NCBI GenBank assembly: GCA_965645245.1
Contig: OZ287081.1
Location: forward strand, 1,798,001-1,862,000
Reading direction: 5' to 3'
Source of the DNA: Massalongia carnosa
Taxonomy: Eukaryota
Length of the DNA stretch: 64,000 nucleotides
The position numbers and the translations under genes are program-made. Shown here piece by piece: positions 34,312 through 63,766 of this stretch. Within the stretch, counting starts at the first letter, position 1, and each line of letters opens with the position of its first letter. The notes beneath the pieces are model-generated. The model searched no databases and was not told where the DNA came from. It saw only the letters and a list, made by a program, of their open reading frames with translations.

Positions 34312-35453
34312 ATAGACGTCAAGCATTAGCCGTCGACCCAAACCGTAGCTTCCTTACCGACTCAACACTAATGACATCTGGTGAAGATTTCGTATTAAGT
34401 TTAGTGTCATGGTGCGAATAAGGATAATCTAGGAAAGGTAGTCACAAGAAGGTTGCTAAGATTGCTAAGCGATACCCCCGACATTTAGCGTCGCGGGAGG
34501 TAGCGCATTGGGTTTAGCGGGAAGCTAACCTCATCAAGGTTAGTAAAGGGATCAAGGAGTTATAAGAAAATCTCTGCAGCAATTGCTGCTTTCTTCTTTG
34601 TGTTCGTCTTGTTTATTTAGCATAGCTATTAGCTAGCCATCAAGACCATCATCACCACCACTTGAGTAGGCCTTCTATTGCCCACCCGTTACATTACGAA
34701 CACCTCCCCCATACCTCAAGTGGTCCTTCGTCCCCAGGTCCTTCTCCCGAAAAGGATGGCCTCCAGCTTCTCCGCCGAGGCATCTACCTCTCTCTCCGAA
34801 GGCCAGACCTTCGATCTTCCCCCTCCGGACTTCAAAAACGAAGCCTCTCTTGCCCCTCACGTGATCACGCCTGATGCTTGGAGCCACTCGATCCAGAAAT
34901 TTCCCCACGAGTGGTACAATTTTTCTATTCAAGCTGCCAATCAGATCACGTCCCTCTCGAGCTCCCTGGACATAAAAACGAGTCAGTGCGAGTCTTTAGA
35001 ATCGGAGCGTGATCAAATCCGCCGTCAGCTGCGTGACTCCAATGACGAGCTGATCGCGGCTCGAGCCTTGATCATCAGCCTTCGCGGACACCCATCCCCC
35101 ATCAGCCACGCAGACTCCCGATCGGAGAGACTCCCGGATATTCCCAAGTTCTCGGGAAAGAAGGAGGATTTACGTTCCTGGACAACCCAACTGCACTTGA
35201 AACTTTTCGTCAATAAAGACCGCTTCACTGGAGAAAAATCAGGACTCATCTATGCTATCAGCCGATTGGAGGGGCGTGCGCTCTCCCAGGTACAACCGTA
35301 TGTCAAGTCACAGCACGAAATCTCTCTGCCGGATGTACCGTCCCTCCTGGTGCTGTTGGAACGTGCATTCGGGGACCCTGACCGAAAGGCCACCGCGCAG
35401 CGTGAGCTGCGTGCCCTTCGTCAGGCAAATCGAGAGTTCCATGTGTACTTAGC

Positions 35454-35673
35454 TGTCAGCCAGTTTAGTGGTCAAGCAGTAAGCGATATGTAGCTCGGAT
35501 ACGGTAATCTATTAACCGAATCCCAACATTCTAGTAACTGAGAGAATGGGTGCAAAATCCTTTCAATGCAAGCAATCATCACCTCAATTCCAAGTGTCAA
35601 TTTCAAGTGTCTATCTAAAACGTAAATCATTCTCCAATCACCAAGAGCTTAGATCAATAAATCAAGTTCAATA
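35454..35673. mobile_element. 220-bp solo LTR inserted in Gypsy-2 gag
   Basis: Starts TGTCA and ends CAATA (probably a mutated CA end); exact TSD TTAGC; removal restores YLADFQRIAP. Confidence 0.85.
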
Positions 35674-36074
35674 TTAGCAGATTTCCAACGCATCGCCCCG
35701 GACACCAATTTTGATGAGGAAGCTCAACGCGCTGCCCTGCAACAAGGTATCAGCGAAGAACTTCAACAGCTAATGTTAACGCAGCTGATCCCGGAGGACC
35801 TCAACGAGCTGATCTCGTTACTACAACGGCTAGATACTCGCCAGCGCAATGTCAATGCCCTGCTCCGGAAGCCCTACTCGCCCCGGTCCGCCCCATCTTC
35901 TTCTGATGCGGGGACCACACTTCGTAACCCTCCGTCTGGGGGGGTTGCCCTACCCCGAACCGTCTCCCCCGCCGCTGCCGCTCCCGCCTCGCCTCCAGAC
36001 GCCATGGACCTCTCCGCCTTCTCTCGAGGCAAGTTATCCTCGGCGGAAGTAACTCGTCGTATGAACGAGGGGCT

Positions 36075-39000
36075 GTGCCGTTACTGCGGGGAGTCCGGGC
36101 ACTTTGCGGCCAACTGTCCCAAACTGGCACGAGGGAAGAAACCCAAGCCGTCACGACTCAACGAGTCTACCCTTGCGGAGTCGACGGAAAACGCTGTGTC
36201 TTCGAGCTAAGTCGCTCTCGAAGACCGACGGAAGGATTTCCTGTGTCAATTTCGGCTTTTTCCATATCAGAAGACTCGTTAGATGGTAGACATTTCGTCG
36301 TATCCATAGAACTCTCTGTAGAAAATCGCGTTTTACACACACATGCATTAATAGATTGCGGCGCTTCTGGCTATGCATTCATTGATTCGTCCTTCGCGCA
36401 AAGAAATTCCCTGCCTCTCACCCCCCTTGTCCGCCCTCGCGTTCTCGAAGTTGTGGACGGCCGACCAGCCGCGGCTGGTATGCTCACACACCTGGCCAAG
36501 TTGAAGATGAACGTCAACGGGCATCACGAGCACGGCTCATTCCTTGTGACCCAGTTGGGTCACTATCCGGTAGTCCTGGGAGTCAAATGGCTTCAAATTC
36601 ACGACCCTTTCGTCAGCTGGTCTCGAAATACTCTGACCTTCTCGTCCTCGTATTGTCGTCTGGAGTGTTTAGAGAATAAACACGTCCCTCTTGTTATTCC
36701 TGGCCTTTCTGATCTTTCCGAAGAGTCTCCTCCCCCGGAGTCTGCTTCCTCAGTGCGTCTTGACCCTCTTGAAATCCGTGAGAACAAGGTCTCTCACGCG
36801 AATCCTGAATTCTTGAAACCCTCCGAGTTTATTGAACATATCGAGTTTATTGAACATCCCGAGCCCATGATCCGAGTCCCGAGTTCACGTCTTGAACCCC
36901 CGAAAATCACCAAGTACACTGAACACTCTCAGCCTCCGAGTCTCGTCCCAGAACTTAAGAAGTCCAGCGCCTTGCCCATGAAAATCTGTATGATAGGAGC
37001 CGCGCCATTTTCCACCCTGATGAAGGATCGAAAGAACGAAATCTTCACTGCGTCCTTGTACGAGATCGAAAAAGCCATACAAGCCTTGAAAAACCCGAGC
37101 AACCTCAGCCTTGCAGCCGCATCTCTGGCTGATGTGGCCAAATCCTTGAAACCTAAGAGATTCATCGATCCTGCTACCGTAGTACCCGAGGAATTTCATG
37201 ATCTCCTGGACGTGTTCTCCAAACAAGAGGCCGATAAACTGCCTCCGCATCGTTCATACGATCACAAGATCGTGTTGATGGAGGGCGCAGTTCCTTCTTC
37301 GGGTCCTCTATACAAGATGTCAGCTCCCGAGCTTTTAGTTTTGCAGAAATATCTCAAGGAAAACTTAGCCAAGGGATTCATTCGAGCCAGTTCCTCTCCT
37401 TGTTCCTCGCCGGTATTGTTCGCACGAAAGCCTTCAGGCGGACTGCGATTCTGTGTCGATTACAGAGCCCTGAACGCGATCACCGTAAAGAATCGCTACC
37501 CAATACCCCTGATTCAGGAGACCCTCGATAGGCTCGCAAAAGCCGTTATATTCTCGAAATTTGATATTGTAGCGGCTTTCAATAAGCTGCGCATGCAGAA
37601 GGGACAGGAATGGATGACGGCCTTCAAAACAAGATATGGGCTTTTCGAGTATGATGTTCTTCCTTTCGGATTGTCTGGAGGTCCTGGATCCTTTCAGCAT
37701 TACATTAACGATGTACTCCGCGAATATCTAGACGCCTTTTGCACCGCGTACATCGATGACATCTTGATTTACAGTAAATTGAGAAAAGAACACAGTATCC
37801 ACGTAAGAAAAGTTTTAACAGCTCTACGAGAAGCGGGGTTGCAACTGGACATTGAGAAATGCGAGTTCTTCGTCACCGAGACAACATATTTGGGATTGAT
37901 TATCTCCAATAAAGGAATAAGAATGGATCCTCGCAAAGTTCAAACCATCAAGGACTGGATCACGCCCAAGAATGTTAAAGATATTCAAGCCTTTGTAGGA
38001 TTCGCGAACTTCTATCGCCGTTTCGTCAAAAACTTCTCCGCCATTGCCGCACCCCTGATAAAGCTGACTCGAAAGAGTGTGATCTTTTCTTGGAATCAGG
38101 AATGCGAGACCGCATTTCAAAGATTAAAGGACGCGTTCATGAGCGACCTTGTTCTGATGCATTTTGATCCTGAGAAAAAGATCGTTGTAGAAGTTGACGC
38201 CTCGGATTGGGTAGTGGGGGGAGTGCTCTCGCAACATGACGACGAAGGAATTCTAAGACCTGTGGCATTCTTCTCAAAGAAACACTCACCAGCGGAAGTA
38301 AATTATGAGATTTATGATAAAGAGCTTATGGCTATCGTTCGTGCCTTTGAGGAATGGAGAGCTGAACTCGAAGGAGCCGCATTTCCAATACAAGTAATTT
38401 CCGATCATAAGAATCTGGAATATTTCATGACAACGAAGCAATTGAGTAGAAGGCAAGCACGCTGGTCCGAATATCTTTCTCGTTTTGATTTTCAGATTGT
38501 GTACCGCCCAGGGAAGAGTGGCGGAAAGCCCGATGCCCTTACCAGAAGGTCTCAAGACCTACCTGAGGGGGGGGATGATCCACGAGTGAAGATCCAACAT
38601 CAAACGGTCTTGAAACCTCGAAATCTTGAACTTCTAGCGAACGGGTTAGCAAAGGAATTTTCGGAAGAGAACGATATTGAATCAGGTTCAGATCAAGAGG
38701 AAGTCAAGACCCTGGAAGAACTATGGCAGGAGGCTCTGAAAAATGATCCTTTCCCTGTCAAGATACTGAACCTGTTGCGGTCAGGAGCAAGGCACTCCAA
38801 GGTTATCTCGTTAGCGGAATGCACCGAAATCGACGGTCGATTACACTATCGAGAGAAAATGTTCGTTCCCGACTCTCATGCTTTGAAAATGAGGCTCTGC
38901 GAGTCTGTTCATGATAGTCCAGTGGCAGGTCACCCCGGCCGAGCCAAGACCTTTGATCTTTTACAGCGCCACTATTACTGGCCTCGATTTTATCAGTTCG

Positions 39001-40166
39001 TAGCGAAGTATGTACAGCACTGTCAAGTATGCGCACGAAGCAAATCATCTCGTCAAGGGAAAATGGTAGTTCTCAGACCACTGCCCATTCCCGAGCGTCG
39101 CTGGCAAGATATCTCAATGGACTTTGTCACTGGACTGCCGGAAAGCAATGGATTCGACGCTATACTGGTCGTGATCGATCGTCTGTCGAAAAGACGTCAC
39201 TTCTCTTCATGTCTCACTACAATCAACGCTCAAGAATTGGCTGAGCTCTTTCTTCGGGATATCTGGAAACCCCATGGACTACCAAGCACCATTGTATCAG
39301 ATCGAGGAGTGCTTTTCGTGGCGGAGTTTTGGAAAAAGCTGTGTCAAGGGTTGGGAATCAAGAGTCTTCTGTCGACAGCCTTCCATCCAGAAACAGATGG
39401 GCAGACGGAGCGAGTAAATGCCTCCATGGAACAATACCTTCGCAGTTACACGGATTATCTTCAGGATGACTGGGCAAATTGGTTGCCCATGGCGGAATTT
39501 ACAGGAAACAATGTCGTGTCCGAAACGACTGGGTGCAGCCCCTTTCTTGCGGAGATGGGATACCACCCGCGTATGGGATTTGAATCAATGGAACCCTCTA
39601 GGTCCCCGGCCAGTTTGAACGCAGGGGAATTCGCCAAGAAAATGCAAGATATCACGATCGTGCTGCAAGAGGAAATGAGATTCGCGCAAGCACGATACGA
39701 AGCAGGGGCCAACGAAAATCGCGTGCCAGCACCGGTTTATCAAGTAGGAGACGCCGTATGGCTAAGCACAAAAAACATACGTACACAACGACCCGCTCGA
39801 AAGCTCGATTGGAAGAAACTAGGCCCATTCAGGATATCTAATGTGGTAAGCAAGTATGCGTATCGACTCGATCTCCCCATCGGCATGAAGATTCATCCCG
39901 TGTTTCATGTATCTCTTCTCTCGCCCGTGCCTCAAGATCCTCACCCTGATCACGTTCCACCTCCTCCTCCACCAGTCGAAGTTGACGGCGAAGAGGAGTA
40001 TGAAGTGGAGGATATCCTCGATTCTAAGAAGTTCCGGAATCGCTTGAAGTATCTGGTGCAGTGGATCGGTTGGAACGACCCCACCTGGGAGTACGCAGAG
40101 TACGTCATCAATGCCAACGAAAGAGTAGCAGACTTTCACCGACGATATCCAGAAAAGCCCCGATAA
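36075..40166 (+). CDS. Gypsy-2 pol (protease, RT, RNase H, integrase, chromodomain), uninterrupted; overlaps gag, so probably expressed by frameshifting
   Basis: LIDCGASG, AYIDDILIYS, VEVDASD, GHPG..C..C, FHPETDGQTER and EYEVEDILDS..YLVQWIGW. Confidence 0.95.
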   Translation: MPLLRGVRALCGQLSQTGTREETQAVTTQRVYPCGVDGKRCVFELSRSRRPTEGFPVSISAFSISEDSLDGRHFVVSIELSVENRVLHTHALIDCGASGYAFIDSSFAQRNSLPLTPLVRPRVLEVVDGRPAAAGMLTHLAKLKMNVNGHHEHGSFLVTQLGHYPVVLGVKWLQIHDPFVSWSRNTLTFSSSYCRLECLENKHVPLVIPGLSDLSEESPPPESASSVRLDPLEIRENKVSHANPEFLKPSEFIEHIEFIEHPEPMIRVPSSRLEPPKITKYTEHSQPPSLVPELKKSSALPMKICMIGAAPFSTLMKDRKNEIFTASLYEIEKAIQALKNPSNLSLAAASLADVAKSLKPKRFIDPATVVPEEFHDLLDVFSKQEADKLPPHRSYDHKIVLMEGAVPSSGPLYKMSAPELLVLQKYLKENLAKGFIRASSSPCSSPVLFARKPSGGLRFCVDYRALNAITVKNRYPIPLIQETLDRLAKAVIFSKFDIVAAFNKLRMQKGQEWMTAFKTRYGLFEYDVLPFGLSGGPGSFQHYINDVLREYLDAFCTAYIDDILIYSKLRKEHSIHVRKVLTALREAGLQLDIEKCEFFVTETTYLGLIISNKGIRMDPRKVQTIKDWITPKNVKDIQAFVGFANFYRRFVKNFSAIAAPLIKLTRKSVIFSWNQECETAFQRLKDAFMSDLVLMHFDPEKKIVVEVDASDWVVGGVLSQHDDEGILRPVAFFSKKHSPAEVNYEIYDKELMAIVRAFEEWRAELEGAAFPIQVISDHKNLEYFMTTKQLSRRQARWSEYLSRFDFQIVYRPGKSGGKPDALTRRSQDLPEGGDDPRVKIQHQTVLKPRNLELLANGLAKEFSEENDIESGSDQEEVKTLEELWQEALKNDPFPVKILNLLRSGARHSKVISLAECTEIDGRLHYREKMFVPDSHALKMRLCESVHDSPVAGHPGRAKTFDLLQRHYYWPRFYQFVAKYVQHCQVCARSKSSRQGKMVVLRPLPIPERRWQDISMDFVTGLPESNGFDAILVVIDRLSKRRHFSSCLTTINAQELAELFLRDIWKPHGLPSTIVSDRGVLFVAEFWKKLCQGLGIKSLLSTAFHPETDGQTERVNASMEQYLRSYTDYLQDDWANWLPMAEFTGNNVVSETTGCSPFLAEMGYHPRMGFESMEPSRSPASLNAGEFAKKMQDITIVLQEEMRFAQARYEAGANENRVPAPVYQVGDAVWLSTKNIRTQRPARKLDWKKLGPFRISNVVSKYAYRLDLPIGMKIHPVFHVSLLSPVPQDPHPDHVPPPPPPVEVDGEEEYEVEDILDSKKFRNRLKYLVQWIGWNDPTWEYAEYVINANERVADFHRRYPEKPR

Positions 40167-44027: not shown

Positions 44028-46631
44028 CTCTCTAATCATCGGCTCGCTTAGTGGGATCCGACTCGGAGGCCGTCGCCTCCTAGTCGGGGAAAGCGATTTT
44101 CATCCGGAAAGCGATTTGCATCAATTCAAACTGAAATTTTTGACCATTTTTCACCTTTTACCCTCAACTACATTGATCAATCATTACTTAATATCGTAAA
44201 AAGCTTGAAAGCATCGTCGTCGTCATCGTTGTCATCAAAATTATCCCCCCCCCTCAATTTTCGATCCTTTATTATCGCATTTGCAACTTTCGAAAAGAGG
44301 TTTTCAACCTTCCTTCGTACCATGGAAAATAATGCCTCAATCTTGGTTTCCACTCTCAGCCCCATGGAAAGATTGGAAGAAGCGAAGCAGTTTCTGATTG
44401 ATCATCCCGAAGAAAGCAAGGCTGCTGCGTCAAAAATCTACAATTTTAACGTTAAAACGTTTACGTCTTATGTTCGTCGTAATCCGAAAGAAGGACAGAA
44501 AAAAGATGGGAAAAAAAAGGGGGGAGAAAATCAGATACTGAAAGAGCATGAAGCTAGGGCTTTAGATGGATTCATTAAATCCTTATTGATACATGGAATT
44601 CCACCTACGCATCACATGGCTTTTAATGCAATTGTAAGTCTGAGAAAGGCTCATAAATTAAAAGCTCCATCAAGACGATTGTTTCGGTCTTGGTGGAAAC
44701 GTAGCAATTTACACAAGATTAAAACCAAACCATTACCAATGATTTGCTTTGAAGCCGCTGAAGAATCAGATGTGATCAAATGGTTTGATGGCTACAAAGA
44801 GGTATTGAGAGAATTGAAAATCAGAAGAAGACGAAACATTCAAAACTTTGATGAAGCTGGTTTTCGAATTGGATGCATGAAGGGTCAGGAAATCTATGTT
44901 CCTATGGAAATCAAGCAATTCTACGCCGTCAGCCCGGAGAATCGCAGATCTGCGACGGTCATTGAGACGATCAATACTGCTGGCGACTATCCCCTCCCCC
45001 CATGATCATCATACAGGGTCAGGAAATCATGGCGACGTGGTTTTCGGAGGATTTGCCGGTAGGCACGCGTATTGTGCCTTCCGATAGTGGTTTCACATCT
45101 GATAAGATAGCAATTGAATATTTGAAGCATCTCATTCAAAATTCGGATGTAGGACCTAATGCAGATTGGAAATTGCTCCTGATGGATAATAATGGGAGTC
45201 ACGTTACTCCTGAATTTGTACTTCTGGCCAATGAAAACCACATTCGTCCCTACCCACTAATTCCACATTTGACTCATTACATGCAGCCATTGGATGTCGG
45301 CGTATTTCAGCCCTATAAGCACTGGCATCAACAGGCTATTGAGGAGAATGTTGCATCGTCATTTGTCGAGTATTCCCTGACTCGGTTTCTTCAGGATTTG
45401 ATCAAAATTAGAAACCAGACATTCAAAGCTTCTACAATCCGACATGCATTTGAAAATTCGGGAATGTGGCCGGTCAATCCAGAAGCATGCATTCGTCGGC
45501 TGAAACAATTCATTCTCAACAATTCTAGTGTGAACAATTCTGATCTGACTGATCAGCCCTTAGTTTCTCTACCTCGTCAAATTCAACCTAGGGATATAGT
45601 CGAAATAGAACATGGATTGCGTCAATGGGGGTCAAAAATTCAAGAATCTATGCAATGGAGTGATCCCGCCCGAGCAGGGGAATTTGATTCTTTTATAGCT
45701 GGTACGAAAGAGATCATTTCGAAGTCTATACTCGGAGAAGCGGAGCTTGAAATGTATCAGCAGTAAAGAACGAATCAGCTAAACAGCAGACGAATATCTC
45801 GTAAAAGATTGAGACCTGAAATCGGATGATTGGGAATAACCGCTGAAGATGCGAAGCAAGCTATAGCCATAAAGCTACAAAAAGATCAGGAAATTGAGAA
45901 GAAAAAGGAGAATAATAACTTCATGAAGCTGTAGAGAACGGAAAGAGACGAAATTCATGTCAAAGGGGTGACTGCTCGAAAAGCAGAAAGGGATCGAGTC
46001 GAACGACTAAAAGAGATGCAGAAAGGGCTCGGTGCTATCTCAGTTGAGATGTATAAGGAGATTCCTGACCCCGAGGGATTATGGAAAGCGACGAATGAGG
46101 TGTGGATAGCTGAGGAAGCGAAAAAAGAAGCCAGAAAGAATCCATCTGCATCTGCTCGTGCCAATGTTGAAGAAAACGTCACATTTATTGTAGATGAGAC
46201 TGAAGCTAGAAATGGAGGCATTTCGAACATTTCGAACATTCCGGACATTCCAGAAGAAGAAGCATGGCTACGAGTTGATTTTGTGTCTTTCGATCCAGGT
46301 TTCGAATCGGGAGATGCTTCGAATTGTGAGGGGGATGCGGGGTATGCGGGGTATCAGGAAGATCAGAATAATCAGGGTGGTCAGGGTAGTCAAGGGGGTC
46401 AGGGGGGTCAGAGGGATGATTTTAATGACGGCTTTGATGATGACGATGCCTTTCGAGCTTTGTATGAAATTTAGAATCAATAAATCAATGTGGTTGAGGG
46501 TAAAAGGTGAAAAATGGTCAGAATTTCAGTTTGAATGGATGCAAATCGCTTTCCGAATGCAAATCGCTTTCCCCGACTAGGAGGCGACGGCCTCCGAGTC
46601 GGATCCCAATAAGCGAGCCGACGATTATTCG
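44028..46631 (+). mobile_element. pogo/Fot1-like DNA transposon with degenerate transposase (44322-46474)
   Basis: Long TIRs (about 44033-44177 vs 46476-46627) and TA at both flanks; NFDEAGF, LLLMDNNGSH and HYMQPLDVGVFQPYK; frameshift near 45000 and later stops. Confidence 0.93.
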
Positions 46632-46842
46632 TACATTCATCACGAATCCATATAGTAGTCACGCTGTTAGGCTTGACCCCTTACAGATCGTTCGAAACGA
46701 TAAAAATTCTAATGTTTGTAGTAATAATCAATTGAAGTTGAAAGTGAAAACGTTTGAGAATCGATTATTTGCAAAAATCCGATCAATGACAGCACTACGC
46801 CGCACAACTGGTCGGGATTCTCTACTGAAAACCTAACCCGTT

Positions 46843-46924
46843 TGTGGCGAACCCTATAATTTTTAGTGTCCGGGTTGAGTTTTGAAAGAAAAACCCGGTG
46901 GCGAAAAAGCAATTTTGTGGCGAA
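46843..46924 (+). promoter_or_regulatory. Three Rpn4/PACE-like motifs (K-GTGGCGAA) upstream of the proteasome gene
   Basis: tgtggcgaa at 46843, ggtggcgaa at 46897 and tgtggcgaa at 46916; the yeast PACE is GGTGGCAAA; 500-590 bp before the ATG. Confidence 0.5.
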
Positions 46925-47430
46925 AACCCAACCCGCTGCGCGGTGTAGACAGCACAATATCGGAGAATTGAAAGTCAATCGTTTCGGAGGCCGAAAGTCA
47001 ATCATTTGCGGATGTCGCTGACATGCATCGTTTCTTTCCTTTCATGATCCTTCACTTACATTCGGGGCATTTCTTTCTGCTCTCTCGTTGGGGAACCGGC
47101 AGCGATGATGTCGGTGGAATTGTAGGCTCACTGCCTTGTGAAGCCACTCAATGTAGTTCTCACGGAAGAAGTGCGGGAAATATCAACGTTGTTAGCACCC
47201 TTCGTTTTTTTACGGAGCTGAGCCGACAGTTGCTTACTACTCGTTGGGGTTGGGAAGGTGGGGCTTGCATAATAATGCTTAGTCTTACTGCAGTCCCTTG
47301 CCGCGGTAAACCTGCACCCATCATCCAACGAACTTGTCTTCAACTATGTTACTCATCTTCGTCCGAACGGTCGTCTCTGCAGAAAGATCAGCCATAGCAC
47401 CCAAGTTGATTTGATATTGTAAAACACTCA

Positions 47431-48252
47431 ATGGCTTATTTTCATATCGAAGGTTCAATTTGCCCTTCGTCTGAGGTGCTCCAAGCACAGAAAGAGAATG
47501 TCTGTGGCCAGAAAAATCATTCGTTCTATCCGTCAGCGTCACCTGTCCCATGGGTCTGACTCCTCCTAATATCATACAGATACACAGACAACGGCGGCTC
47601 AATCCTAGGCATCAGCAGCGGTAACTTCGCGGTACTTGCCGGCGACACTCGCTCTACCAATGGCTACTCCATCAACTCTCGTTGTGAGCCTAAAGTCTTT
47701 CGTATCGGCTCGGACGACCGCATCGTCCTCGCCCTTGTTGGTTTCGCCGCAGACGGCAAAGAGCTCAAGGAACGTCTTGACACGATGTGCAACATGTATC
47801 AATTTAAACATGGAAAATCCATCAGCGTGACCGCGTGCGCTCACCGACTCTCCACGTTGCTGTATGCTAAGCGGTTCTTCCCTTATCAGGTGCAAGCTAT
47901 TCTCGCGGGACTGGATGAAGAGGGGAATGGAGCTTTGTACAGCTATGATCCCGCAGGCAGCTATAAAAGAGATCAATGTGCAGCAGCCGGGGCTGCCGCG
48001 AGTTTGATCATGCCGTTCCTCGATAATCAAGTGACTTTCAATAACCAATATGTTCCAGGCAACGGAGCTGGGGCCACGGAGTTGGAGTCGAGGCCCGAGG
48101 AGCTGTGGTCCAGAGATGCTGTGATAGAATTGGTCATGGATGCGTTTGATAATGCTACGGAGAGACATATAGAAGTTGGTGATGGCCTGCAACTTATGGT
48201 TCTTACCGAAAATGGGATACAGGAGATCTTCACACCTCTGAAAAGAGATTAG
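47431..48252 (+). CDS. PRE7: 20S proteasome subunit beta6 (Pre7/PSMB1 family), divergent, 257 aa; exons 47431-47531 and 47580-48252
   Basis: FYP|YTDNGGS, LAGDTR, GFAADG, KRFFPY, SLIMPFLDNQV, ERHIEVGDGL and C-terminal LKRD; a 48-nt GT..AG intron with ctaat branch point gives an uninterrupted frame. Confidence 0.95.
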
Positions 48253-49669
48253 GGCTTCCACGGGTAAGTGGTTGAGGAATGATGACGTGAAAAGTCAATT
48301 GACTGGCGAAATGTAGATCCTAATACCGTTTTATCTGGCAGATAAAATGCTGGTTTTATGGGCGAATTGGTCGTCGAGAGGTCGTTTGGGACAAGATTTT
48401 ATGGGTTAACAGGTCCTATGAATGGAGGGGGTCTTCTGGGGGGGAGGGGGCTGAGACAGCGCCTAGAAACAGCAAAAGCCTTCTCCGAAGACTTTCGTGG
48501 ATCCTTTTATCAAGAAATGGAGTAGGTAATGAAGGAAGAATTGAAAAGTGAAGTGAATCATCCGAATGCTGTTTGTGGTGATGAGAAGACTGAAAATCAA
48601 AGAGAATGATGAAATGAATGCAGATGAGAATTGATTTTCGGATCAAATTGACTTCAGGAAATGGTATACAGATTTTGATGAAATTTGTATATAAATTCAT
48701 GTACTTCTTCGAACTGAAAAGGACCGGGCTCCCATCAATGATGAGATTTAGGTTCTATGACACAAGAGGGTTTTCAAGCTTGGTGGGGTTTTATCTGTCA
48801 AATAATACGATATACTATATACGACAATCCCACTTCCACTATATTAACCGGAATCCTATCGGAAAGTCAACTCTCAAAATCAAGCTTCACGACCGTACTG
48901 CTGTAGACGCGATGAGTCGCAGTACATGCAAGTTCCACTTAGTGCGCCCAAGTCCCGGTGAACCTTTCAATCTCTGCCGATATATAAGAGAGAGCAATCC
49001 GGAACTCCGTGAATCACGTTGGCCTTTGCTCGATGGCAGCCGTGGAGGACGAGAGGTAAACTGGTTCTTTGGGAGAAGGAAAAATCCGTAGCTCGACCGT
49101 AATTCTTTCGTAGGAATTTGCAATTGAACCCTCAAAAGTGGCACGCCGAGAGATACGCGCCGTCTTGTATCCCGAGAGATGTCTCACTTTGATCCTCCTT
49201 TGTCTCGTTTGATTGAATGTTTTTGAAAGGTCAGATTCGTGCGAGTCCGATGGTGTCGAGTCCGCGCGCAACCTTTTTATGGTTGTGTCCACAAATCGCA
49301 ATGGCAATCGAAGCGTGAGCTGATGCTCAAGAACTGGCCAAGTGCGCTCCACTATTTGGGAGCCTAGATAATGATCCTCGATGAAGTTGCTCACCGCGTT
49401 GAGGTATTTGACTCCAACGGGGACGATATGCGCGCCAGGGTGAGTTATTCTGATGTTGTCAAACCTGAATGTGGTCGATTCTCATCGCCGATCCTCGACC
49501 CCCTGTCGCGGCAGATGCCGCTAAGCTACGCCATTTCTTCCACACCTTTACCCCTCAATTTGCCGGGGTTAATATCGTTGCTGCCATGACCCCTTTTCCC
49601 TTCTATATAGGTAGCTAGATGTGGGCATTTCCCACATACAGAACACAGCCTTTTTCATCCTTCCTGAAT

Positions 49670-50373
49670 TCATGTGAAAGGTTGACAGATGTATCTATCA
49701 CCACCGATCTGTGCATCCTCAACAGCTTGCGCCATCTTGAGTCCAACAACTGGGTCCCAGCAGCCGCAGAAATGGATAAAAGGTGTGGAGATAAGTGGAT
49801 TTTTGTAGAATGCAGTGTACTTCTTCCTTTGCCCCATCAGAGCACCATAGGTGATTCCAAATTTTAGTTGGGGATGATCTAGAATCTCGAGCGACCGAGG
49901 ATATTGAAAACTTTCAGGGAACTCCCCTGGGCGCGCCTGAACGCTTCTCTGCGTGGCTCACCTTCCAGAAGGGAAGCCACCATTACTGCTAGGAGTGCAC
50001 CTTGTGAGAAGCCCAAGATTCCATCGAACGGCCCCTCTGTTCTCAGGATATCTGCCAACGCGTCCAAACTTTCGACAAACCCTTTAGGTGGGTCCCGGGT
50101 ATCGTGCAGCGTGTGCCAAGCGTATGCATCGATATCGTCGGGGTCGGGTTCGTCATTAAGGTAAGGGTTTTTATCGCTGGCAGGTGGCTCTGACTGTCGT
50201 GAGCTGACACCCAGCGCTTTTTCGCTGGGTCGGAGTCGAACTACGCCTGTAGGGAAATAGACTTGGGCGCCGGGGAAAATGTTTTCGAGGTGAGATTGTA
50301 GCTTGCGAATTTTTCGTTGAAATCCAGGTCCGCTTTGGGTGTAGCCATGGAGGGCCAGAATTTTTACAGCCAT
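49670..50373 (-). pseudogene. FSH1/LovG-family serine hydrolase (esterase), frameshifted and 3'-truncated
   Basis: ILALHGYTQSG and EGPFDGILGFSQGA; after a 1-nt frameshift near 49918 the frame continues HPQLKFGITYG...FIHFCGCWDPVV and stops at 49670 before the catalytic His motif. Confidence 0.85.
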
Positions 50374-50851
50374 GACAGTGATTCAGGAAGTATAATAATC
50401 AGGAGAGAGTATCAGGATCACACAGGCACCCTCCAGATACAAAGCATACAAAATTATTTGAAATGCTAAGCAAAATTCATTACATTTGTACGTTGGATCT
50501 TCAGCGTTCTAATATGCGTATGCCAATTTTTTTCCCCTAAGTCTTAAGCAAAGAAATGTATGTCGTATGCAAAGTCAAACATGACGGACACTCATAAGAT
50601 CGAAACAAGGAGACGGAGGAGTTCAGAACGCGGCAAAGCAGAGTAGAAGGGCTGGGATGTGGGCCATTAATAACAGGAAAACGACCAGACTGTCACTTAG
50701 CAAAGTGAGGTTCCGCCACACACATTGCCACGAAAGAGAATGGCTGGATGTGGGCTTTCAAGTTTCACATCACTTCAATTACTTGCAACGCCCCCGCGGA
50801 CTGAAGGTCAGCTTGTTTCGTCTTCAGGCTCCACCGCCGGCCTTATTTTCC

Positions 50852-53800
50852 CGAGGTGCTTAGGGACAGCCCCCCCCCCCTGTGTAAATCTTTGCTAGTA
50901 AATAGCCATTTCACAGCTCATCCAGGGTGCGTACAAGCTAGTATTGCAACTGCCAACAGCAAATTAAACTCTTTTCGGTTTAAATCGTATGACGTTTTAT
51001 TGCTACTAATAATTACCCTACTCGGTCTGATAAAGCATACCCTCACCCCACCCTCACCCTCATTTACCATTTGCCCTTGCCCTTGTCCTAATCCTTTGCC
51101 CTCACTAAATCTCCCCTTCCACTTATGCTATACCTCATATTATATATTTTACTACTCCTCATCGCGATGGAGTTCGATCCTACTTCTTTGGATGCACGGA
51201 AGCAACATGTCATTGCCCTTCTTACCCAACCTCATCTCCTCCCTCCGCAAGAGAATGAGTTATTTTCGTCTTGGGAGGAAGCAAAGACTCGTCTTCAAGA
51301 CTATGCCTTCACCCAAGGCTTCGCGTTGGTCACAGAAACTCACGATAAGAAAAACCATTTAATCGTATTAGACTGCACACGCCACCACAAAAGAGTTAGA
51401 AACACTAGAAAAGTAGAGGAGGAAGACCGGGTGCGAGCCAATACCAAAGTTTCGTTCAATGAGTGCCCTTATCGCCTCCGTCTCAAAAAAAACAAAGACA
51501 ATGCATGGAGACTAATAGTCACTAACTCCGAGCACAATCATGAGATGGCCACTGATCCCTTTGCATTCAGAGAACATCATAGTAGGGACCCTGATCGAAC
51601 AGATGCCCTAGATCAAGGGAAGAGTCTCCGTGCATCATCAACCCAATATGACCAAGCAGCGAGAATATTAGGAATCCAAGGACTCCGTCTGTCGAGGAGC
51701 GATTATTATAATCTCGCTCATTCGGAGGGAGCTCACACGCCTGAAGAAGAGCTTATTTTTGCCTTGGGCTCGTTGAAAGACAGGGGCTTTCATGTACGGT
51801 GTAAGGAAAAATATATTGTTAAGAATAATGTGCGTGAGAGACGGGTGATAGAACAATTTTTATTTTGCAATGCAAAGCAAATTAGGCTGGCTCGACGTTT
51901 CGTGGGTGGGTTTTTATTAGAAACGGATGCAACATTCAATACTAATAAATTGAACTTGCCTTTAACACCGACCTTTGGTTTCCCGTCGCTTATTGCTATA
52001 TAACTTCCGAATCGGCCGAATGTTTCACTTTTATTTCGAATGTATGAAAGAGTTGATTTTTCATGATGATTGCCCCGGGCCTGGGGTGATTCTCGGGGAT
52101 TTTGCAGCGGGGTTGACTGTAGCCATGCAAAGAAAAGCTAAAGCTCCGGCAATTGATCTCGATGCTGCATTGACCATTGCAAGAGAGGTCGCCGAAAATC
52201 TAAACCAATCAACGATGAAAGCGGGCGAGGATAGATGCGTTTTGCAGCTGTGCACGTGGCATGCGGCCGAGGCAATAAAAAACGACTGATCAAGGCAGGA
52301 CAGTATCCCCAAGAAGTGCGCAACAAGCTGGAGACTCTTATTTGGGATTATATAAAATCCCTCACTATTGATGAGTTGGATGAGAGACGAAGAAAGTTGC
52401 TGAATGAACTTCATCCCGCAGAAAAGGTTAGTAGTGATATATCAAATTAAATTTCAAGCGAGTTAGGGCTACTGCTAACGCTACCTCTTTCGCAGGATTA
52501 TCTCATGAATTTCTATCAACGTCAAGAAATTCAATTCGTGCATGAATATACTACTAAACTCCCTAATTTAGGCGCACACAGCACACAGCGTTCAAAAGGT
52601 CTGCATCCATTGGTTAAAAATGTGACTAATAGAAAAACTCTCATAAGACAATCGGTGCAGAAAATATGTGATGAGGTGCGGAAAAAACAATTAGATCAGG
52701 AGATTTTGTGCAATCAACAGCGAATACGCAATCCTAGATTGATCGATAGAAATGCTTTTACGCTACTCATTGGGAAAACTACGCATCATGCCATTGGCCT
52801 CGTTTCAAGAGAACTCGATGCCGCCAAATCATTAGCTGAACGAATCCTTTCTATTGTCCCTGATGGTGGAAGCTGTGTTTATGATTGTGAATTGCCTTTA
52901 AGGTACGGTCTCCCATGCAAATGCTGGTTGTATAAATGCATCATCGACTCGGTCTCTATTCCCATTTCCCTCATCCACCCCCGCTAGTTTTTTGATGGCC
53001 CACCTTATGCGGTCTCTTGGCAAATGACCTTCGATTTCGCTTGCGGCTCGGAGCCCGAGGTCGAAAAGATCGTCGATGAGGTCGAAGGGACGGGAGAGAT
53101 TGAGGCGGATAAGGATGAGGTCGAGCTCGAAGAAGGCGTGTTGAGTGAGGATAGATTTCGCCGCGGGGGCCTTGATTTGCTACATTCTGTGGCATATCAA
53201 TCTATTGACCTGCATCAATCAATAGAAGATTCTCGTCGAAGGGAGGAGAACGCTCGCGAGCATGCTCACATCGTTGAAAAGTTCAATAAGAAATGGCAAA
53301 AGAAGGAGCTGGTAAGACCTCTCATCCCCACCACATTCCCCGACGAAATTCGGCCCAAAAAAAACCTCATGCATAAGAAAGGAGGGAGTCGTCGACGTGC
53401 CTACACTGGTCGCGAGGCAGCTGAGGCTAGAGAAACTGAACAGCGACGTATTAGGCGAAGGAACTCTATTGAACAAGGGAGGAGGCTTAGATATAATAGA
53501 TTGCGTGCTGGGGGCGACGATGAGGTTGAAGGTGAAACAGAAGGTAAAATTCACGATGTTGCAAAGTTATTGCGCTCGGGTCTGCTAATATTGGGTACAA
53601 TAGGTTTAGGAGAAAACTTAGTTATGGAGAGAATCGAAAACGCGTCTATCGTCTCCGACGACGATGACGAGGTGCAGTATATAAGCACTCAGCCCATTCT
53701 CGGTCGTTCTATGGATCCTATACTTCCTTCGGATGACGATAATGATGTTATTCTTACATCAGAATCCTCGTCGGATTCGCTCGAAGATATTGACGATGTG

Positions 53801-54289
53801 CTTGCCAAGCATAGTCAAAAAGCCCTACCTCAGGCAGCGCCGGCTCCATCTCTTTATAGTCTTAGCCAAAACGTGCGCGCCAGTCAAATTCTCCCTACTT
53901 CCTCTGCAACAACGCGAAGGTCTCGGGGTGTGGCGAAGAAATCAAAGGCTCAGTTGGAGTTGGAATCTCAGCAAAGAGTCGAGAAATCAGTCAAACAGGC
54001 TAGGGCTCAAGCGAGAAAGGAAACGGCGATGAGAAAGGTGGCTAAAACCATGAAGCCTAGAAAAGATGATGTATCGCAATTGGCTGACGAGTTTTTGGAG
54101 TTGAAATCATCGCAATAGGTAGATTTGTAGGTGTTGAATACACTTAGTCAGTAACAGCAACATTATTAATACGTAGTGTAACTGCTAGCTTGTACGCACC
54201 CTGGATGAGTAGTAAATTGGCTGTTTACTAAAGATTTACACGGGGGGGGGGGGGGTACGGTCGGGGGGCGACTGTCCCTAAGCACCTCG
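50852..54289 (+). mobile_element. Second Mutator/MULE family element (FAR1-like N-terminus), degenerate transposase about 51167-54118
   Basis: About 90-100-bp TIRs CGAGGTGCTTAGGGACAG... / ...CTGTCCCTAAGCACCTCG; ETDATFNTNKLNLPL, LQLCTWHA and YGLPCKC; frameshifts; no TSD. Confidence 0.9.
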
Positions 54290-57610: not shown

Positions 57611-58281
57611 AGTAATTTGCCGTTTTTTTTTTTATTTCGATTCGTGTAAAAATTCACGATTTCCTTTTTGAAAGAATTCATTCAAAGGAATTTTTCGTCT
57701 TCTGGGGCTTTATTATTCTGCCAATCGTGTGTGGTAGCTTTCTCTGCAAGGATTAATTGTTACTCACATACAACTCCCGTATGACAAAGCTGAGAGGTGG
57801 GGTGTTGGGGGTCATGCATTTCCCGTTTGCTTCTTACACAAGATGCTTTCATTTGTCGTCCGACCTAGCCTCACATTGTCTGAAAGTGGAAGAGCTCCAG
57901 ACAGGGATTTGGTTCCCTCAAATCATGCTAGTGATGCGGCTTTTATCAGCTGCAGGACATCGAGTCAATGAGATGATTAGTACACCTAGCAGAGCACTCG
58001 TGCCTTTCTTTCACTTTCATTTAGTGCCTATAGCAGAGGCTGAATGATTGCTGAATGCAGGGTCTTGTAGCGTTTTCATCCATCCCCCTGATTTTTCCTA
58101 TTAGTTGTGATTGCTTGAAGAGACCCGATGTGTTTTGCACTTGGAAAATTTCCTCAGTTTGTTTTTTATCTCTTCATATGCCAATGGGAACCAAACATTC
58201 AAAATTCAGTTTAAGTATGTCAAAGTTATTCGTTTTGTGACATAGCTAATAAGTGAACGAGCAGGATATATTCAGGGGAGT

Positions 58282-59979
58282 ATGTATTTCTCACAACCAC
58301 TATCGATTCCTTCGCTGCTGCTGGCGCCGATGATAATTGCGTCGACACAAGCCGCCCCTCTCGAAAGCCCCCCTTCTCCTCCGCTTCAATCAATCGATGA
58401 TGCAATCAGAACCTCTATTTTAAATGTTACCGCAGAAGCTTTCGAGCCTCCATGGGTGCCAGGTCCTAGTCAACGCGGTACCCTCTCGCTTGTCTTCAGC
58501 TGCGCCCTTACGTTATTTCTGTGCGTCTGGACGACGGTACACGTTAACATCGAGCCCGAGGGAAATTATAATAACACTCTATTCCGCTTGTTTCCCGGCT
58601 TGGGTCGCAGATCCGGTGGCGCGCCAACCAAGTCCAGCAGGGCCGTCGGCTACTTGCTGGCCAACAAAACGGTGCGGAAACTCGGATGGGGTTTCGTAAC
58701 ATTGATTGTGCCGGAGGGTGCCATGACTATCGCCGCCTATGAGCGGAGAACGGCGCATAGGCTTCGCAATGAGGTCCGAAAGATTGAGGGCTATGAAAAT
58801 TTTGACCTTCTCCTAGCTTATTATTCTATAATGGGAGGCTTTGTCATTCAGAGCGCAGGGATGATCATGGAACATGGCGAAGGGAAAGTCTCGATGGCTG
58901 GTGGAAAGGATGTGGGAATTGAAGATGAAGAAGCGATCAGAGAAACCATACCAGCTCTTATGAGCAACGAGGAAGAAAAGACCACCCAAGCCGTGTCCTC
59001 CGTATCGGAAAACAAAGAACTGCATCCTTCGAAACTCAACCCACCCAGGGATGGTCACGACAATCTTCAATCCACAGCCAATTTTATCCCGCTCAACGAA
59101 CCCCTCACATTCACCCCACACGGCGTCTTGCAACTCGCACGTTGGGATAAGCTGCCTCCAATAACCTCTGCCCAAGTCCAAGATAAAAGCAATGCCAACA
59201 CTCTCGCGAAGCTACTGGTCTTTTGGCAGGCCCTCTGGATGATCGTTCAGGTCATCGGCCGCGCTGCCGAGAAACTCCCTGTGACTTTGCTCGAGCTCCA
59301 CACCGTTCTCCATACCTTCTGTGCTGTCGCCATGTACATTACCTGGTGGGCCAAACCTGTCGATATCAACTATCCTACCCTCGTGACGGGACTCACCCCC
59401 GACCAGCTACATGATTTACGACATGGAGTCGAGGATTCGAACCCGACCAACCCCTTTGCGGGGCCGAACGGGGACGACCCCATCGACAAATCCTATTTGA
59501 CCTCTCGCGCCGGGCTCGGCAAGCTCATGTATCAGAACTTGGCGGGGGAGCAAAACGTGCTCCTCCACTACTTCGACGTCATGACAACAGCCTACACCAC
59601 GCTTTGGATTTCGCGAAAACGCATCTGGCGCGAAGGCCTCTCCATCTCGCTTGTCGGCCTCACATACGGCGGCGTGCATCTCGCCGCCTGGAACAACACT
59701 TTTCCGACAACGGCCGAGAAAATCCTCTGGCAAGTCGCCGCGCTCGTGACGGCCATCGCGTGGTCGACGTTCGTGTTATCGCTGTGGCTCAGCGTCTTCG
59801 TATCCCGGCAGTCCAAGGGACTGGGGAGGATCTGCGGGATCGTATTCGGGATCGGGGTGTTTCCTTGTCTTGCCGTTAGGGGCTACCTGTTGGTGGAGGC
59901 ATTCCTGGCGCTGAGGAAGTTACCGGTCGGGTCTTATCAGATTACCAAGTGGGCGAATGCTTGGCCGCATGCTTCGTGA
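58282..59979 (+). CDS. Uncharacterised multi-pass membrane protein with signal-peptide-like N-terminus
   Basis: 565-aa intronless ORF; recurrent fungal family motifs RGTLSLVFSCALTLFLCVWTTVHVNI, QDKSNANTLAKLLV, LLELHT, WWAKP, YGGVHLAAWNNTFPT and LLVEAFLALRKLP. Confidence 0.85.
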   Translation: MYFSQPLSIPSLLLAPMIIASTQAAPLESPPSPPLQSIDDAIRTSILNVTAEAFEPPWVPGPSQRGTLSLVFSCALTLFLCVWTTVHVNIEPEGNYNNTLFRLFPGLGRRSGGAPTKSSRAVGYLLANKTVRKLGWGFVTLIVPEGAMTIAAYERRTAHRLRNEVRKIEGYENFDLLLAYYSIMGGFVIQSAGMIMEHGEGKVSMAGGKDVGIEDEEAIRETIPALMSNEEEKTTQAVSSVSENKELHPSKLNPPRDGHDNLQSTANFIPLNEPLTFTPHGVLQLARWDKLPPITSAQVQDKSNANTLAKLLVFWQALWMIVQVIGRAAEKLPVTLLELHTVLHTFCAVAMYITWWAKPVDINYPTLVTGLTPDQLHDLRHGVEDSNPTNPFAGPNGDDPIDKSYLTSRAGLGKLMYQNLAGEQNVLLHYFDVMTTAYTTLWISRKRIWREGLSISLVGLTYGGVHLAAWNNTFPTTAEKILWQVAALVTAIAWSTFVLSLWLSVFVSRQSKGLGRICGIVFGIGVFPCLAVRGYLLVEAFLALRKLPVGSYQITKWANAWPHAS

Positions 59980-61241: not shown

Positions 61242-62936
61242 TCACTCCCCATGAAGTCTTCGGGACCAATGCAAACCCGCCTCCTTTCCAAACTCGGGCC
61301 ACAAAGCCGCCTCTTTCTCGACATCGCCGTGACAATATGCAACCTGCGAGGTACGATTCCAGGTTCCCGCACCATGAGCTTCGGATCGCTCGTCAAGACA
61401 GCTGTAGAGGATGGTGGAATTCAAGGCTTGAGCCTTATTCCAGGATGCGGGTGAGTTTGTAAGGATGGCGACGATGAGAGTGACGAGGACAAGGACGACA
61501 GGGATGACGATAATAACTTTTACCGAGAGGGTGGCAATATTGATACTCTTGACGATGAAGTCGGCCACTCCCGGATAGATCGATTTGGTGTTTGGGTCTA
61601 TGGCAAGATTGGTGATGTTGGCAGTATTGGACTTAAAGGTTGTAGTATCAGCGAAAATATTTATCGAAGCTATATAGGCAGCCGCCACGAGTTTTCGTAG
61701 GTCGGTCTCCATGTTGGACGAACGTGCGTCGAATACCAAACCTAGCGATGTCGCCGAGGATTGAAGTGCTTGAGCTCCTAGGTTTATGCCGAGGGATACA
61801 ATCATAGGTAGTCCTAAGAAGCGCTCGAAGAAATACTGTCGCAGTTCATCGGGCATATTCAGACCAGGTAGGCTCGAGAGTTCGAAGACATTACCGGTGT
61901 GGCCTTTGTAGGACCAAACATCATTTTCCCAGCACGAGAGAATCGGTCTTCCTGTCCTGACAATGTACCCTGGATTTTCCGCGGTGTCGTTCGTGGATTC
62001 CGTTGCATATAAGGGATCTGATCCTGGGGTAAAGCTTAAGCGCTTTGCCGAGGAAATGGTTATTGCGAACGAGGTGTTGCTCGAACGCTCCTGAAGTGAA
62101 CCCAGGCTAAAATAAGCTGTTGGGGGCCTGCCGTCAAAAAGCGATATATCTATCGTGTTTTCTTTGAGGCCATATAGGTGATAGGTGTCAATCCAGGTGC
62201 CGTTAATCGATCGACTAGCCGCTAGCCATGTGTATTCTGTAATACAAGATCCTTCCACGTTCAGATTAAGACCTGCAGCATGCTGAAGGCCAAAATCCGC
62301 CGCACTAATCGTGTAGGAATAATGTATTTGCTGAACACTCCCAGTCACTCCGGATGTCACCACAGGGCTACTCAAAGTGACCTGTGGAAGCCCCGTGGCG
62401 TTGACACTCCCTGCCGCGCGAAGGCTTGACGGTACTCGGAGGGCAAACGATGCGTATAGGGCCGAGTTGTCGAGGTTCTTATTCGAGGGCACGAAGATAC
62501 TCGTGGGATCAACCGGTGCGCCGTTCCCGAGGATGAGGAATCGAGGAACATTGATGGATACAACATAGCCCACCGCTAAAAGGGTGGCGGCCGCACACAT
62601 CCATAAGACAGCATACCACCTGTCGCGCTTTCTTTTCATGCGGAAAAAGTACTGCGCCATCAGCTTCAAGACCGTAAATGCCGATCCTTGAGAGTTCCAA
62701 ATGGCCGCTGAAGCCGCCCCAATGTTTGGACTATGCGCTTTCCTCATAAACGCGGATATTCCAGCCAGGACAAGCAAAGCCCATAGCTGCAAGATCATCA
62801 GCTCCATCATTAAAGTGTATGCCGACAGAAGCCTTTTGCCATCTTCCGAGGAAACCGAAACGGCATCTCTGGTTCCATTTCCTATCGGCATGGAAAACCG
62901 TTTCCACAGCCTATAAGTTGAGTCGTCCGCCTCCAT
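61242..62936 (-). CDS. Uncharacterised membrane glycoprotein (two N-terminal TM segments, large luminal domain, C-terminal TM)
   Basis: 564-aa intronless ORF with hydrophobic stretches and several N-x-S/T sequons. Confidence 0.75.
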   Translation of the reverse strand: MEADDSTYRLWKRFSMPIGNGTRDAVSVSSEDGKRLLSAYTLMMELMILQLWALLVLAGISAFMRKAHSPNIGAASAAIWNSQGSAFTVLKLMAQYFFRMKRKRDRWYAVLWMCAAATLLAVGYVVSINVPRFLILGNGAPVDPTSIFVPSNKNLDNSALYASFALRVPSSLRAAGSVNATGLPQVTLSSPVVTSGVTGSVQQIHYSYTISAADFGLQHAAGLNLNVEGSCITEYTWLAASRSINGTWIDTYHLYGLKENTIDISLFDGRPPTAYFSLGSLQERSSNTSFAITISSAKRLSFTPGSDPLYATESTNDTAENPGYIVRTGRPILSCWENDVWSYKGHTGNVFELSSLPGLNMPDELRQYFFERFLGLPMIVSLGINLGAQALQSSATSLGLVFDARSSNMETDLRKLVAAAYIASINIFADTTTFKSNTANITNLAIDPNTKSIYPGVADFIVKSINIATLSVKVIIVIPVVLVLVTLIVAILTNSPASWNKAQALNSTILYSCLDERSEAHGAGTWNRTSQVAYCHGDVEKEAALWPEFGKEAGLHWSRRLHGE

Positions 62937-63766
62937 CTCGCCGAAACAGCAGCTAGTCCGAATGCGGGGAAAATGAAAACGGAAGTAGAAATAGAAAATG
63001 GGGTTGATGCGAGACGGATTAAAGTTGGTGCTTTCGGGGGGGGATACCTGCTAACACGCTCATCTTATGCCACCGCAGCCGCAATTCAACTTACTTATTA
63101 CGAATTGAGCCGCAGAAAAATAGCTCGCAGAGGCACTCACACGACCTCCTTGTGCCCCTTTAGGAGCTGGAGGGTTTCAGGGTCTCAAACCAGCCTGTAC
63201 CGCTACGGCCGAAGACCAGTACGCCCAGAGAACAATTTCAGTCCAAGGATGTGGGAAATAAGAAAGATACGTTGATAGGCCGACCGCGCGGATACATGGC
63301 TACACAATGCTAAGTAGGTGCATGTTGCTGGGTAGGATGCTGTTTCTCCCTTTGACGGGGAGCAAACGACTAAGGACACGGAAGGAGCTACCGCGCAAGA
63401 TATCATATCCCTCATTTTCGAGCTTCGTGACTCCGTCCTTAGGGAGGATTGATTCGTCCCGATTCGCCATCACATTTGGCAGCCAGGTTTCAATTATTGG
63501 GATATGGTGGGACATTTGGGGATACGAGCAGAGGGCAGGCTACACCGTGTGAATAGCTGAATGAATGCACGTGGGGGCGGGATAAGCTGAAGTGATGAAA
63601 GTGATAAAAGTGAAATCGGAGAATATAAGAGGAAGCGGGGTATGGTGGAGGCTGCGGGAGTGGGTTGAAGGGTTGCGAGTGGTCGAGGACCTCGTCGAGA
63701 AGAGTGTAATTCAGTGCATCAGGTAGAATGAAAAGGTCAGTAGGTCTGTATCTGGGCTGCACTGCT

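Follow-up and report, generated by a model that had tools for sequence, protein, structure and literature searches.

What remains of a fungal self-resistance system when the genes that make the inhibitor no longer stand beside it? The question is raised by a 64-kb stretch (the window, taken here at its full length) of contig OZ287081.1 of the lichen fungus Massalongia carnosa, in which a gene for a proteasome beta6 subunit and a gene for an FSH1-type esterase converge between transposons. A pair of this kind is found in the fellutamide B (inp) cluster of Aspergillus nidulans, where an extra beta6 gene, inpE, is accompanied by an esterase gene, inpF, whose product is thought to act in release or transfer of the product of a nonribosomal peptide synthetase (NRPS) (available text of PMC10734572 and PMC6517689), and where inpE reportedly provides resistance against fellutamide B (PMC10734572, same text). 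An earlier note on this DNA, made from the sequence alone, had pointed to that cluster with its resistance beta6 and its esterase, and had proposed that the pair is either the relic of an undescribed proteasome-inhibitor cluster or one piece of a cluster split by transposons. The word undescribed does not hold, the parent type being the described fellutamide family. With a probability of about 0.7, the pair is a module of the InpE/InpF type that stands without biosynthetic genes, its beta6 gene kept and its esterase decaying; it is probably a leftover self-protection module and not a new kind of system.

Anatomy and kinship of the beta6 gene

The beta6 (Pre7) gene occupies 47431-48252 on the plus strand. 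Exon 1 (47431..47531) begins with an ATG at 47431, covers the propeptide region and ends in HSFYP; a 48-nt intron (47532..47579) with GT..AG borders and a CTGAC branch-like site separates it from exon 2 (47580..48252, stop included), which encodes 223 residues. Removal of the intron yields an open frame of 257 residues with no internal stop, and the junction of HSFYP with YTDNGG agrees with that of the annotated homologues P0009 and P0011. Exon 2 matches the Pfam Proteasome family PF00227 (E 2.7e-35), and its best relative of solved structure is yeast beta6/Pre7, aligned end to end over residues 1-223 (E 3.4e-74); beta3 and beta2 chains score only E 1e-13 or weaker. Thus, with a Proteasome domain and beta6 chains as best matches, the product is a beta6 subunit (Pre7/PSMB1), and the gene is spliced and intact, as the earlier note had read it.

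This subunit is not placed with the housekeeping beta6 proteins. Among the matches listed, ten lichen-type sequences stand closest, at 77-87% identity; among named species, the beta6 of Lecanora helva reaches 77%, that of Lepraria finkii 74% and that of Bisporella sp. PMI_857 72%, and the housekeeping beta6 of every ascomycete class stands at 63-71%. In a tree of 50 rows, the window beta6 falls into a set of 17; a branch with 99% support in the Shimodaira-Hasegawa-like approximate likelihood ratio test (SH-aLRT) separates this set from the 33 housekeeping rows. The 33 include the lichen fungi Xanthoria, cf. Caloplaca, Bacidia and Chaenotheca; the clade of 17 brings lichen fungi, with 13 or more lichen-type members, together with two Leotiomycetes, Bisporella and Clarireedia, and so spans the classes Lecanoromycetes and Leotiomycetes. 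Of the 95 columns conserved to at least 97% in 148 other beta6 sequences, the window beta6 keeps every one; the other clade members depart from 0-15 of them.

One link of the clade to biosynthesis is Bisporella sp. PMI_857, which holds both types of beta6: P0011, a clade member on a 263,749-bp contig, and the canonical P0263, found by a profile search with the clade alignment, on a contig of 2,026,417 bp, the two being 64% identical. According to the available part of the supplement of PMC10734572, the Bisporella cluster beta6 lies on scaffold_63 at 197,651-198,325, between two NRPS genes, and another gene of scaffold_63 reaches 256,987. Because the 263,749-bp contig fits this placement, P0011 is taken to be the cluster copy, and because P0263 is canonical, at least one genome has both types, with the clade member as the cluster copy. 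Judged by tree and identity, the window beta6 is therefore of the paralogue type and not the housekeeping one; the divergence that the earlier note had seen is borne out by its place outside the housekeeping clade, together with the Bisporella fellutamide-family cluster beta6.

Contigs of four public runs (X1, X2, X4 and X5, from three studies) were aligned to 46500-51200. Among the indel rows shown, six further rows not being displayed, none lies inside the beta6 coding sequence. All four runs have A at 48137, so that the Met220 codon of the window becomes one for Lys, the residue of 15 of 16 clade members, and C at 48130, a synonymous change; at these two positions the window carries either a strain variant or an error of assembly.

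The beta6-esterase pair in metagenome loci

Metagenome contigs scanned with beta6 gave 11 loci, four of which (L001, L002, L003 and L005) carry the clade signature; L004, L006-L009 and L011 have a housekeeping-type or distant signature, and the short match of L010 ends before the motif. The open reading frames (ORFs) of L001, from a 104-kb contig, were scanned with Pfam, L001 being the one metagenome locus so treated. Four genes stand side by side there: an acyl-AMP ligase (1656-3737, minus strand), a 1512-residue NRPS of the C-A-T-R type, with Condensation, AMP-binding, PP-binding and terminal reductase domains (4489-9027, minus), a beta6 of the window type (9995-10669, plus) and a 409-residue FSH1 ORF (10928-12157, minus). 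The beta6 of this locus is 81.5% identical to the Bisporella cluster copy, and the stretch 1656-12157 resembles a portion of a fellutamide-family cluster, its source being a relative of Bisporella. L001 shares with the window the convergent beta6(+)/FSH1(-) pair, and L002 repeats that pair with an esterase identical to that of L001. Thus the NRPS and acyl ligase genes that were to be sought beside the pair in relatives do adjoin it in L001. In the available part of the supplement of PMC10734572, the inpF homologue of Bisporella has 406 residues, lies two protein numbers from the beta6 gene and is 44% identical to InpF; by analogy, the L001 FSH1 would be of the InpF type.

Anatomy, kinship and alleles of the esterase

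The esterase gene of the window runs from an ATG at 50373 to 49014 on the minus strand (49014-50373), convergent with beta6, and lies in three pieces. Part 1 (49927..50373) carries the nucleophile motif GFSQG and is 52% identical to the FSH1 of L001 (159 bits); part 2 (49693..49924), in another frame, carries the Asp motif WDPVV (57% identity, 96 bits); and part 3 (49014..49451) carries the His motif ITHPGAHIVP, followed by a tail of about 108 residues and a stop at 49014-49016 (50% identity). The Ser-Asp-His motifs GFSQG, WDPVV and HPGAH align to those of homologues, and the FSH1 domain is present: PF03959 matches 49879-50373 at profile positions 5-129 (E 2.9e-28), and the match continues in a second frame, at 49670-49957, with positions 129-180 (E 4.9e-07), from which it follows that the frameshift in the window is real. 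Two lesions account for the broken frame of the window allele. One is a 1-bp deletion at 49924..49926, and the other an inserted high-copy repeat of about 240 bp at 49452..49692, flanked by the 7-bp near-duplicates CTGATGT and CAGATGT. Read across both lesions, the esterase has 374 codons without a stop.

The kinship of this esterase was misjudged at first. A near-length search gave matches of 46-49%, which are orthologues of the housekeeping A. nidulans AN4776, and an ordinary FSH enzyme was considered; that search had seen only proteins of 90-287 residues, so that the cluster type, of 406-409 residues, was overlooked. Against the AN4776 type of FSH, the window esterase shows 46-48% (123-137 bits) and 37-44% identity, and its three pieces match the L001 FSH1 more closely than they do any protein of that type that was compared. 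The idea of an ordinary FSH was dropped after comparison with L001 and after a tree of 39 rows, in which the window esterase joins L001 and L002 at 99% SH-aLRT, apart from 35 housekeeping rows, with four lichen fungi among them. On these sequence comparisons, the window esterase is classed as the cluster type (InpF-type, or LovG-like) and not as a housekeeping FSH, which upholds the earlier assignment to the LovG/FSH kind.

The lesions are not shared by all copies. In all four runs an extra T, at about 0.4-0.7 of the local depth, stands behind 49924 (X2, X4) or behind 49926 (X5, X1), and either insertion restores the frame. Contigs of three of the four runs skip the repeat, passing from 49452 to 49693 with four other letters between (X1, X2) or from 49451 to 49688 (X4); the net loss is 236 nt, which puts pieces 2 and 3 into one frame. 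The esterase lesions are thus allele-specific and segregating. In X2 the repeat has a depth of about 403,000, against about 1,400-2,600 in its flanks (about 290-fold); no second copy is found in the window and no clear terminal inverted repeat at its ends, and it is left unclassified. The earlier note had placed and oriented the frameshifted esterase correctly; it had missed the insertion of about 240 bp and the end with the His motif, and the lesion is not fixed. A 139-residue ORF of a relative, P0140, comprises 5' flank and the first 80 or so esterase codons, 70% identical over the shared part, and then passes into another frame at a different place, which suggests either independent decay of the esterase or a contig error.

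Within 46950-50900, the flanking and esterase DNA occurs in three runs (X1, X2 and X5) as two versions, similar in depth, with differences at 15 of 264 letters in 48611-48874 and at 8 of 170 in 50326-50495, or about 5%. In X1, beta6 exon 2 is represented by a single 687-bp contig at about the summed depth, with flanks in two versions of half depth. Either a pair of haplotypes or a duplication of the segment may underlie this, beta6 being the same in both versions.

Biosynthetic domains in the window

Pfam was run on 199 ORFs: from the window as a whole, 54 of the 70 with 130 residues or more, and from 40.9-64 kb a further 145, of which 139 have 55-129 residues; ORFs shorter than 130 residues in 1-40.9 kb were left out. 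Among these 199 there is no NRPS, polyketide synthase (PKS), AMP-binding, major facilitator superfamily (MFS) or fungal regulator domain; with no such domain in the scanned ORFs, the window holds no recognisable fellutamide-family biosynthetic cluster, and over the 47 kb to the left and 16 kb to the right of beta6 no scanned ORF links it to NRPS genes. The absence of NRPS and PKS genes from the window, as noted before, is thus confirmed for this set. Similarly, the NRPS of L001 has no tblastn match in the window at E<=1, and pieces of the L001 acyl-AMP ligase have weak matches at chance level (best E 0.005).

The beta6 wall of the beta5 channel

The 17 clade members were compared residue by residue with 132 housekeeping sequences, numbered by gap-free alignment to yeast beta6 around the loops. 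Tyr96, which is Tyr in 131 of the 132 housekeeping sequences, is replaced in all 17 clade members (Gln in 11, Met in 5, Ser in 1). Three further positions are invariant in the housekeeping set and shifted in the clade: Val116 to Ala (14/17), Glu120 to Lys (12/17) and Glu122 to Asp (11/17). His98 is Gln in 16 of the 17. In the window beta6 the five positions are Q137 (Tyr96), Q139 (His98), A159 (Val116), K163 (Glu120) and D165 (Glu122). The clade-specific changes sit in beta6 residues 94-98 and 114-122, two loops bordering the inhibitor and substrate channel of beta5.

Several features of this channel are described in the literature, here in the parts of each source that were available. In yeast, beta6 Pro94, Tyr-5, Tyr96 and Pro115 form a hydrophobic pocket for the aliphatic tail of glidobactin-type inhibitors at beta5, and the P3 residue is bound by beta6 Asp114 and Ser118 (PMC8248439). 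A docking study has beta6 Tyr96 and His98 stacking on the inhibitor cap (PMC6274525), and a review states that the fellutamide B tail follows a different course at each active site (PMC8707610). The window beta6 retains Tyr-5, Pro94, Asp114 and Pro115. The tail of fellutamide B reportedly lies in the same beta6 pocket, a finding attributed to Hines et al. in 2008. The literature searched yielded no account of which residues underlie InpE-type resistance.

A mechanism can be proposed from these residues. The variant beta6 would replace its housekeeping counterpart beside beta5 in the 20S core, and the wall of the beta5 channel that beta6 supplies would then be altered (Tyr96 to Gln, His98 to Gln, Val116 to Ala, Glu120 to Lys). 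Such a wall would be expected to bind lipopeptide-aldehyde inhibitors less tightly while proteolysis goes on, and resistance is predicted. The esterase would have served in NRPS product release or transfer; with no synthetases it would have no job, and would decay. The biosynthetic genes are presumed to have been lost rather than relocated.

Comparison with known systems

A close likeness is to the Bisporella and L001 pairs. The window beta6 belongs to their clade (72% identity to P0011, 71% to L001) and shares the signature FFP[YF]QVQ, ACAH and DPAG; the pair has the convergent order of L001, and the esterases group together. The difference lies in the neighbours: the Bisporella and L001 pairs are flanked by NRPS and acyl-AMP ligase genes, whereas that of the window is flanked by transposons and has a broken esterase allele. 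With inpE and inpF of the A. nidulans cluster, the window shares an extra beta6 paralogue beside an esterase, the beta6 standing apart from housekeeping copies, but it lacks inpA, inpB, inpC, inpD and scpR.

Two further systems each share part of this arrangement. The fellutamide-family cluster of Lobaria pulmonaria, compared here by its published description, is likewise that of a lichen-forming fungus with a cluster-type beta6; it keeps the NRPS and lacks inpF, whereas the window keeps an inpF-type esterase without an NRPS. The available text of PMC10734572 reports unusual nucleotide conservation of the Lobaria cluster beta6, and a likeness may be seen in the single collapsed contig of beta6 exon 2 in the window, whose flanks split into two versions. 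Unclustered extra beta6 genes are described in three Aspergillus species, with no fellutamide-like backbone gene nearby, and may protect against the inhibitors of neighbours (available text of PMC6517689). The window resembles them in having an extra copy with no fellutamide-like backbone gene nearby; they differ in belonging to the Eurotiomycetes, and no esterase partner is reported for them in the text available. Housekeeping beta6, finally, as in yeast Pre7 or human PSMB1, shares with the window protein a full-length alignment, the fold family, the lack of a catalytic Thr1 and the retained Tyr-5, Pro94, Asp114 and Pro115, but differs in that Tyr96, His98, Val116, Glu120 and Glu122 are all replaced in the window, and in the identity of 63-71% given above for the fungal matches listed.

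Alternatives and counter-evidence

The most serious alternative, unlikely in our view though far from negligible, is that the cluster is split but live: NRPS, ligase, transporter and regulator would lie elsewhere in the genome, displaced by transposons or moved, a fellutamide-type inhibitor would still be made by the fungus, and beta6 would be a working self-resistance gene. The full conservation of the window beta6 and the persistence of contigs without each esterase lesion speak for this, as does the fact that the window covers 64 kb of a 605-kb contig. It is opposed by the spacing of known clusters, for in published clusters and in L001 the NRPS lies at most 18 kb from beta6, and here the scanned ORFs show none within 47 kb on one side and 16 kb on the other, nor did the tblastn comparison show any relic of one. 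It is opposed as well by the two independent esterase lesions in one allele and by the relative that also has a frameshifted copy.

Much less probable is a specialised beta6 isoform unrelated to inhibitors, specific to a condition or tissue of lichen fungi, for which the NRPS link would be secondary. The clade has its 13 or more lichen-type members, and genomic context is known for two clade members only, Bisporella and L001/L002, which leaves room for such an isoform; yet both of these lie inside NRPS clusters, the clade changes fall in the loops 94-98 and 114-122 lining the beta5 inhibitor and substrate channel, and the co-inherited esterase is a cluster-type enzyme. It is equally hard to credit that the window beta6 is the only, somewhat divergent housekeeping beta6 of its lineage, with the esterase a neighbour by coincidence: every universally conserved column is kept, as that would have it, but lichen fungi of several families have the canonical YYVH type, the window clade crosses classes, Bisporella has both types, as do the Teloschistaceae (Flavoplaca against Xanthoria and cf. 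Caloplaca, all three of which we take to belong to that family), the 132 housekeeping sequences show little or no variation at Tyr96, Val116 and Glu120, and the neighbouring esterase is of cluster type and oriented as in L001.

Several points weigh against the preferred reading, that of an orphaned InpE/InpF-type module. NRPS genes could lie elsewhere on the 605-kb contig, and a canonical second beta6 in the M. carnosa genome is assumed. Esterase decay is no proof of lost biosynthesis, because InpF is not an absolute requirement for making fellutamide and the Lobaria pulmonaria cluster is without inpF (available text of PMC10734572); nor is that decay fixed, since contigs without each lesion exist. 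Between the window and L001 beta6, the rate of nonsynonymous change (dN) is 0.197 and that of synonymous change (dS) is saturated or undefined, so that no dN/dS ratio results. His98 varies among housekeeping sequences too (His in 88, Thr in 25 and Gln in 10 of 132), so that only Tyr96, Val116, Glu120 and Glu122 are diagnostic. Both trees come from a "quick" search with SH-aLRT as the only support and a midpoint root, and the L001 FSH1 is taken as InpF type because of its position and its length, 409 residues as against 406 in Bisporella.

The relation to A. nidulans deserves particular caution. InpE and InpF themselves stand outside all the alignments, and no Aspergillus InpE or cluster copy is among the best 120 matches of either beta6 search, that with the clade profile included. 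InpE is 55% identical to the Bisporella cluster beta6 (available part of the supplement of PMC10734572). Because InpE is outside the alignments and only 55% identical to the Bisporella copy, a common origin of the window clade with InpE itself is unproven, and InpE may represent either a long branch or a duplication of its own. Jenkinson et al., in the text available, regard the fellutamide-family clusters, each taken whole, as homologous.

Transposon surroundings

The beta6-esterase segment is unique DNA between two repeats. On its left lies a pogo-like DNA transposon (44033..46627) with inverted 216-bp ends that are 87% alike and a DDE_1 ORF at 44966-45766; on its right lies a Mutator-like element (50870..54253) with inverted 72-bp ends that are 87.5% alike and an ORF with a FAR1/AFT DNA-binding domain at 51092-52003. 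That the pair might be the cargo of a single transposon was considered and rejected: the repeats on either side come from different elements, and each element has inverted ends of its own, so that the pair is not the cargo of any one recognisable element.

Left of 11.3 kb the window holds ordinary genes, for a zinc-type alcohol dehydrogenase, a phosphofructokinase, Med17 and an alpha/beta hydrolase. Transposons take up about 11.5-57 kb. Between 11.8 and 54.3 kb, two Mutator-like and two Ty3/gypsy elements are recognisable by Pfam, with hAT, piggyBac-like, pogo-like DDE_1 and FAR1/MULE (Mutator-like element) ORFs, and the G+C content drops from 0.50-0.57 to 0.42-0.46. The island of transposons around the pair is thus as the earlier note had described it. 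One Ty3/gypsy element (34666-40166) has gag-like ORFs and an uninterrupted pol frame of 1412 residues, with reverse transcriptase, RNase H, integrase and chromodomain, and may still be active; the second copy, at 23404-29044 on the minus strand, is split over several frames. Two MULE transposase ORFs of 194 residues, 12020-12604(-) and 14023-14607(+), stand in opposite orientation with the same Pfam scores, which suggests a recent inverted duplication of a Mutator-like element. In the right flank, which is richer in G+C, two long open frames with several hydrophobic stretches and without a Pfam match, 58246-59979(+) of 577 residues and 61242-63050(-) of 602 residues, are probably genes without assigned function.

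Implications

Part of this picture is already known, namely fellutamide clusters in a lichen fungus and unclustered extra beta6 genes in three Aspergillus species (available text of PMC10734572 and PMC6517689). What is added here is a clade with a pocket signature, a conserved convergent beta6/FSH1 pair, and the survival of both genes without synthetases. Tentatively, and at somewhat less than even odds, we suggest that lichen fungi keep a stand-alone, "immunity-only" beta6 under selection after losing the synthetases, against lipopeptide proteasome inhibitors from other inhabitants of the thallus or substrate, and that the clade-wide loss of Tyr96 together with Val116Ala and Glu120Lys is the structural basis of InpE-type resistance.

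Resistance-gene-guided genome mining takes an extra copy of a drug target as the marker of a nearby cluster, and the locus of M. carnosa offers a clear exception: a fellutamide-type cluster's two non-biosynthetic genes persist there without synthetases, one conserved and one decaying. Orphan pairs of this kind would be false positives for such mining, and they would also be evidence that immunity by target replacement can outlast production. The signature itself, with Tyr96 lost in 17 of 17 clade members and with Val116Ala and Glu120Lys, offers a testable hypothesis of how a non-catalytic neighbour subunit may shield the beta5 site.

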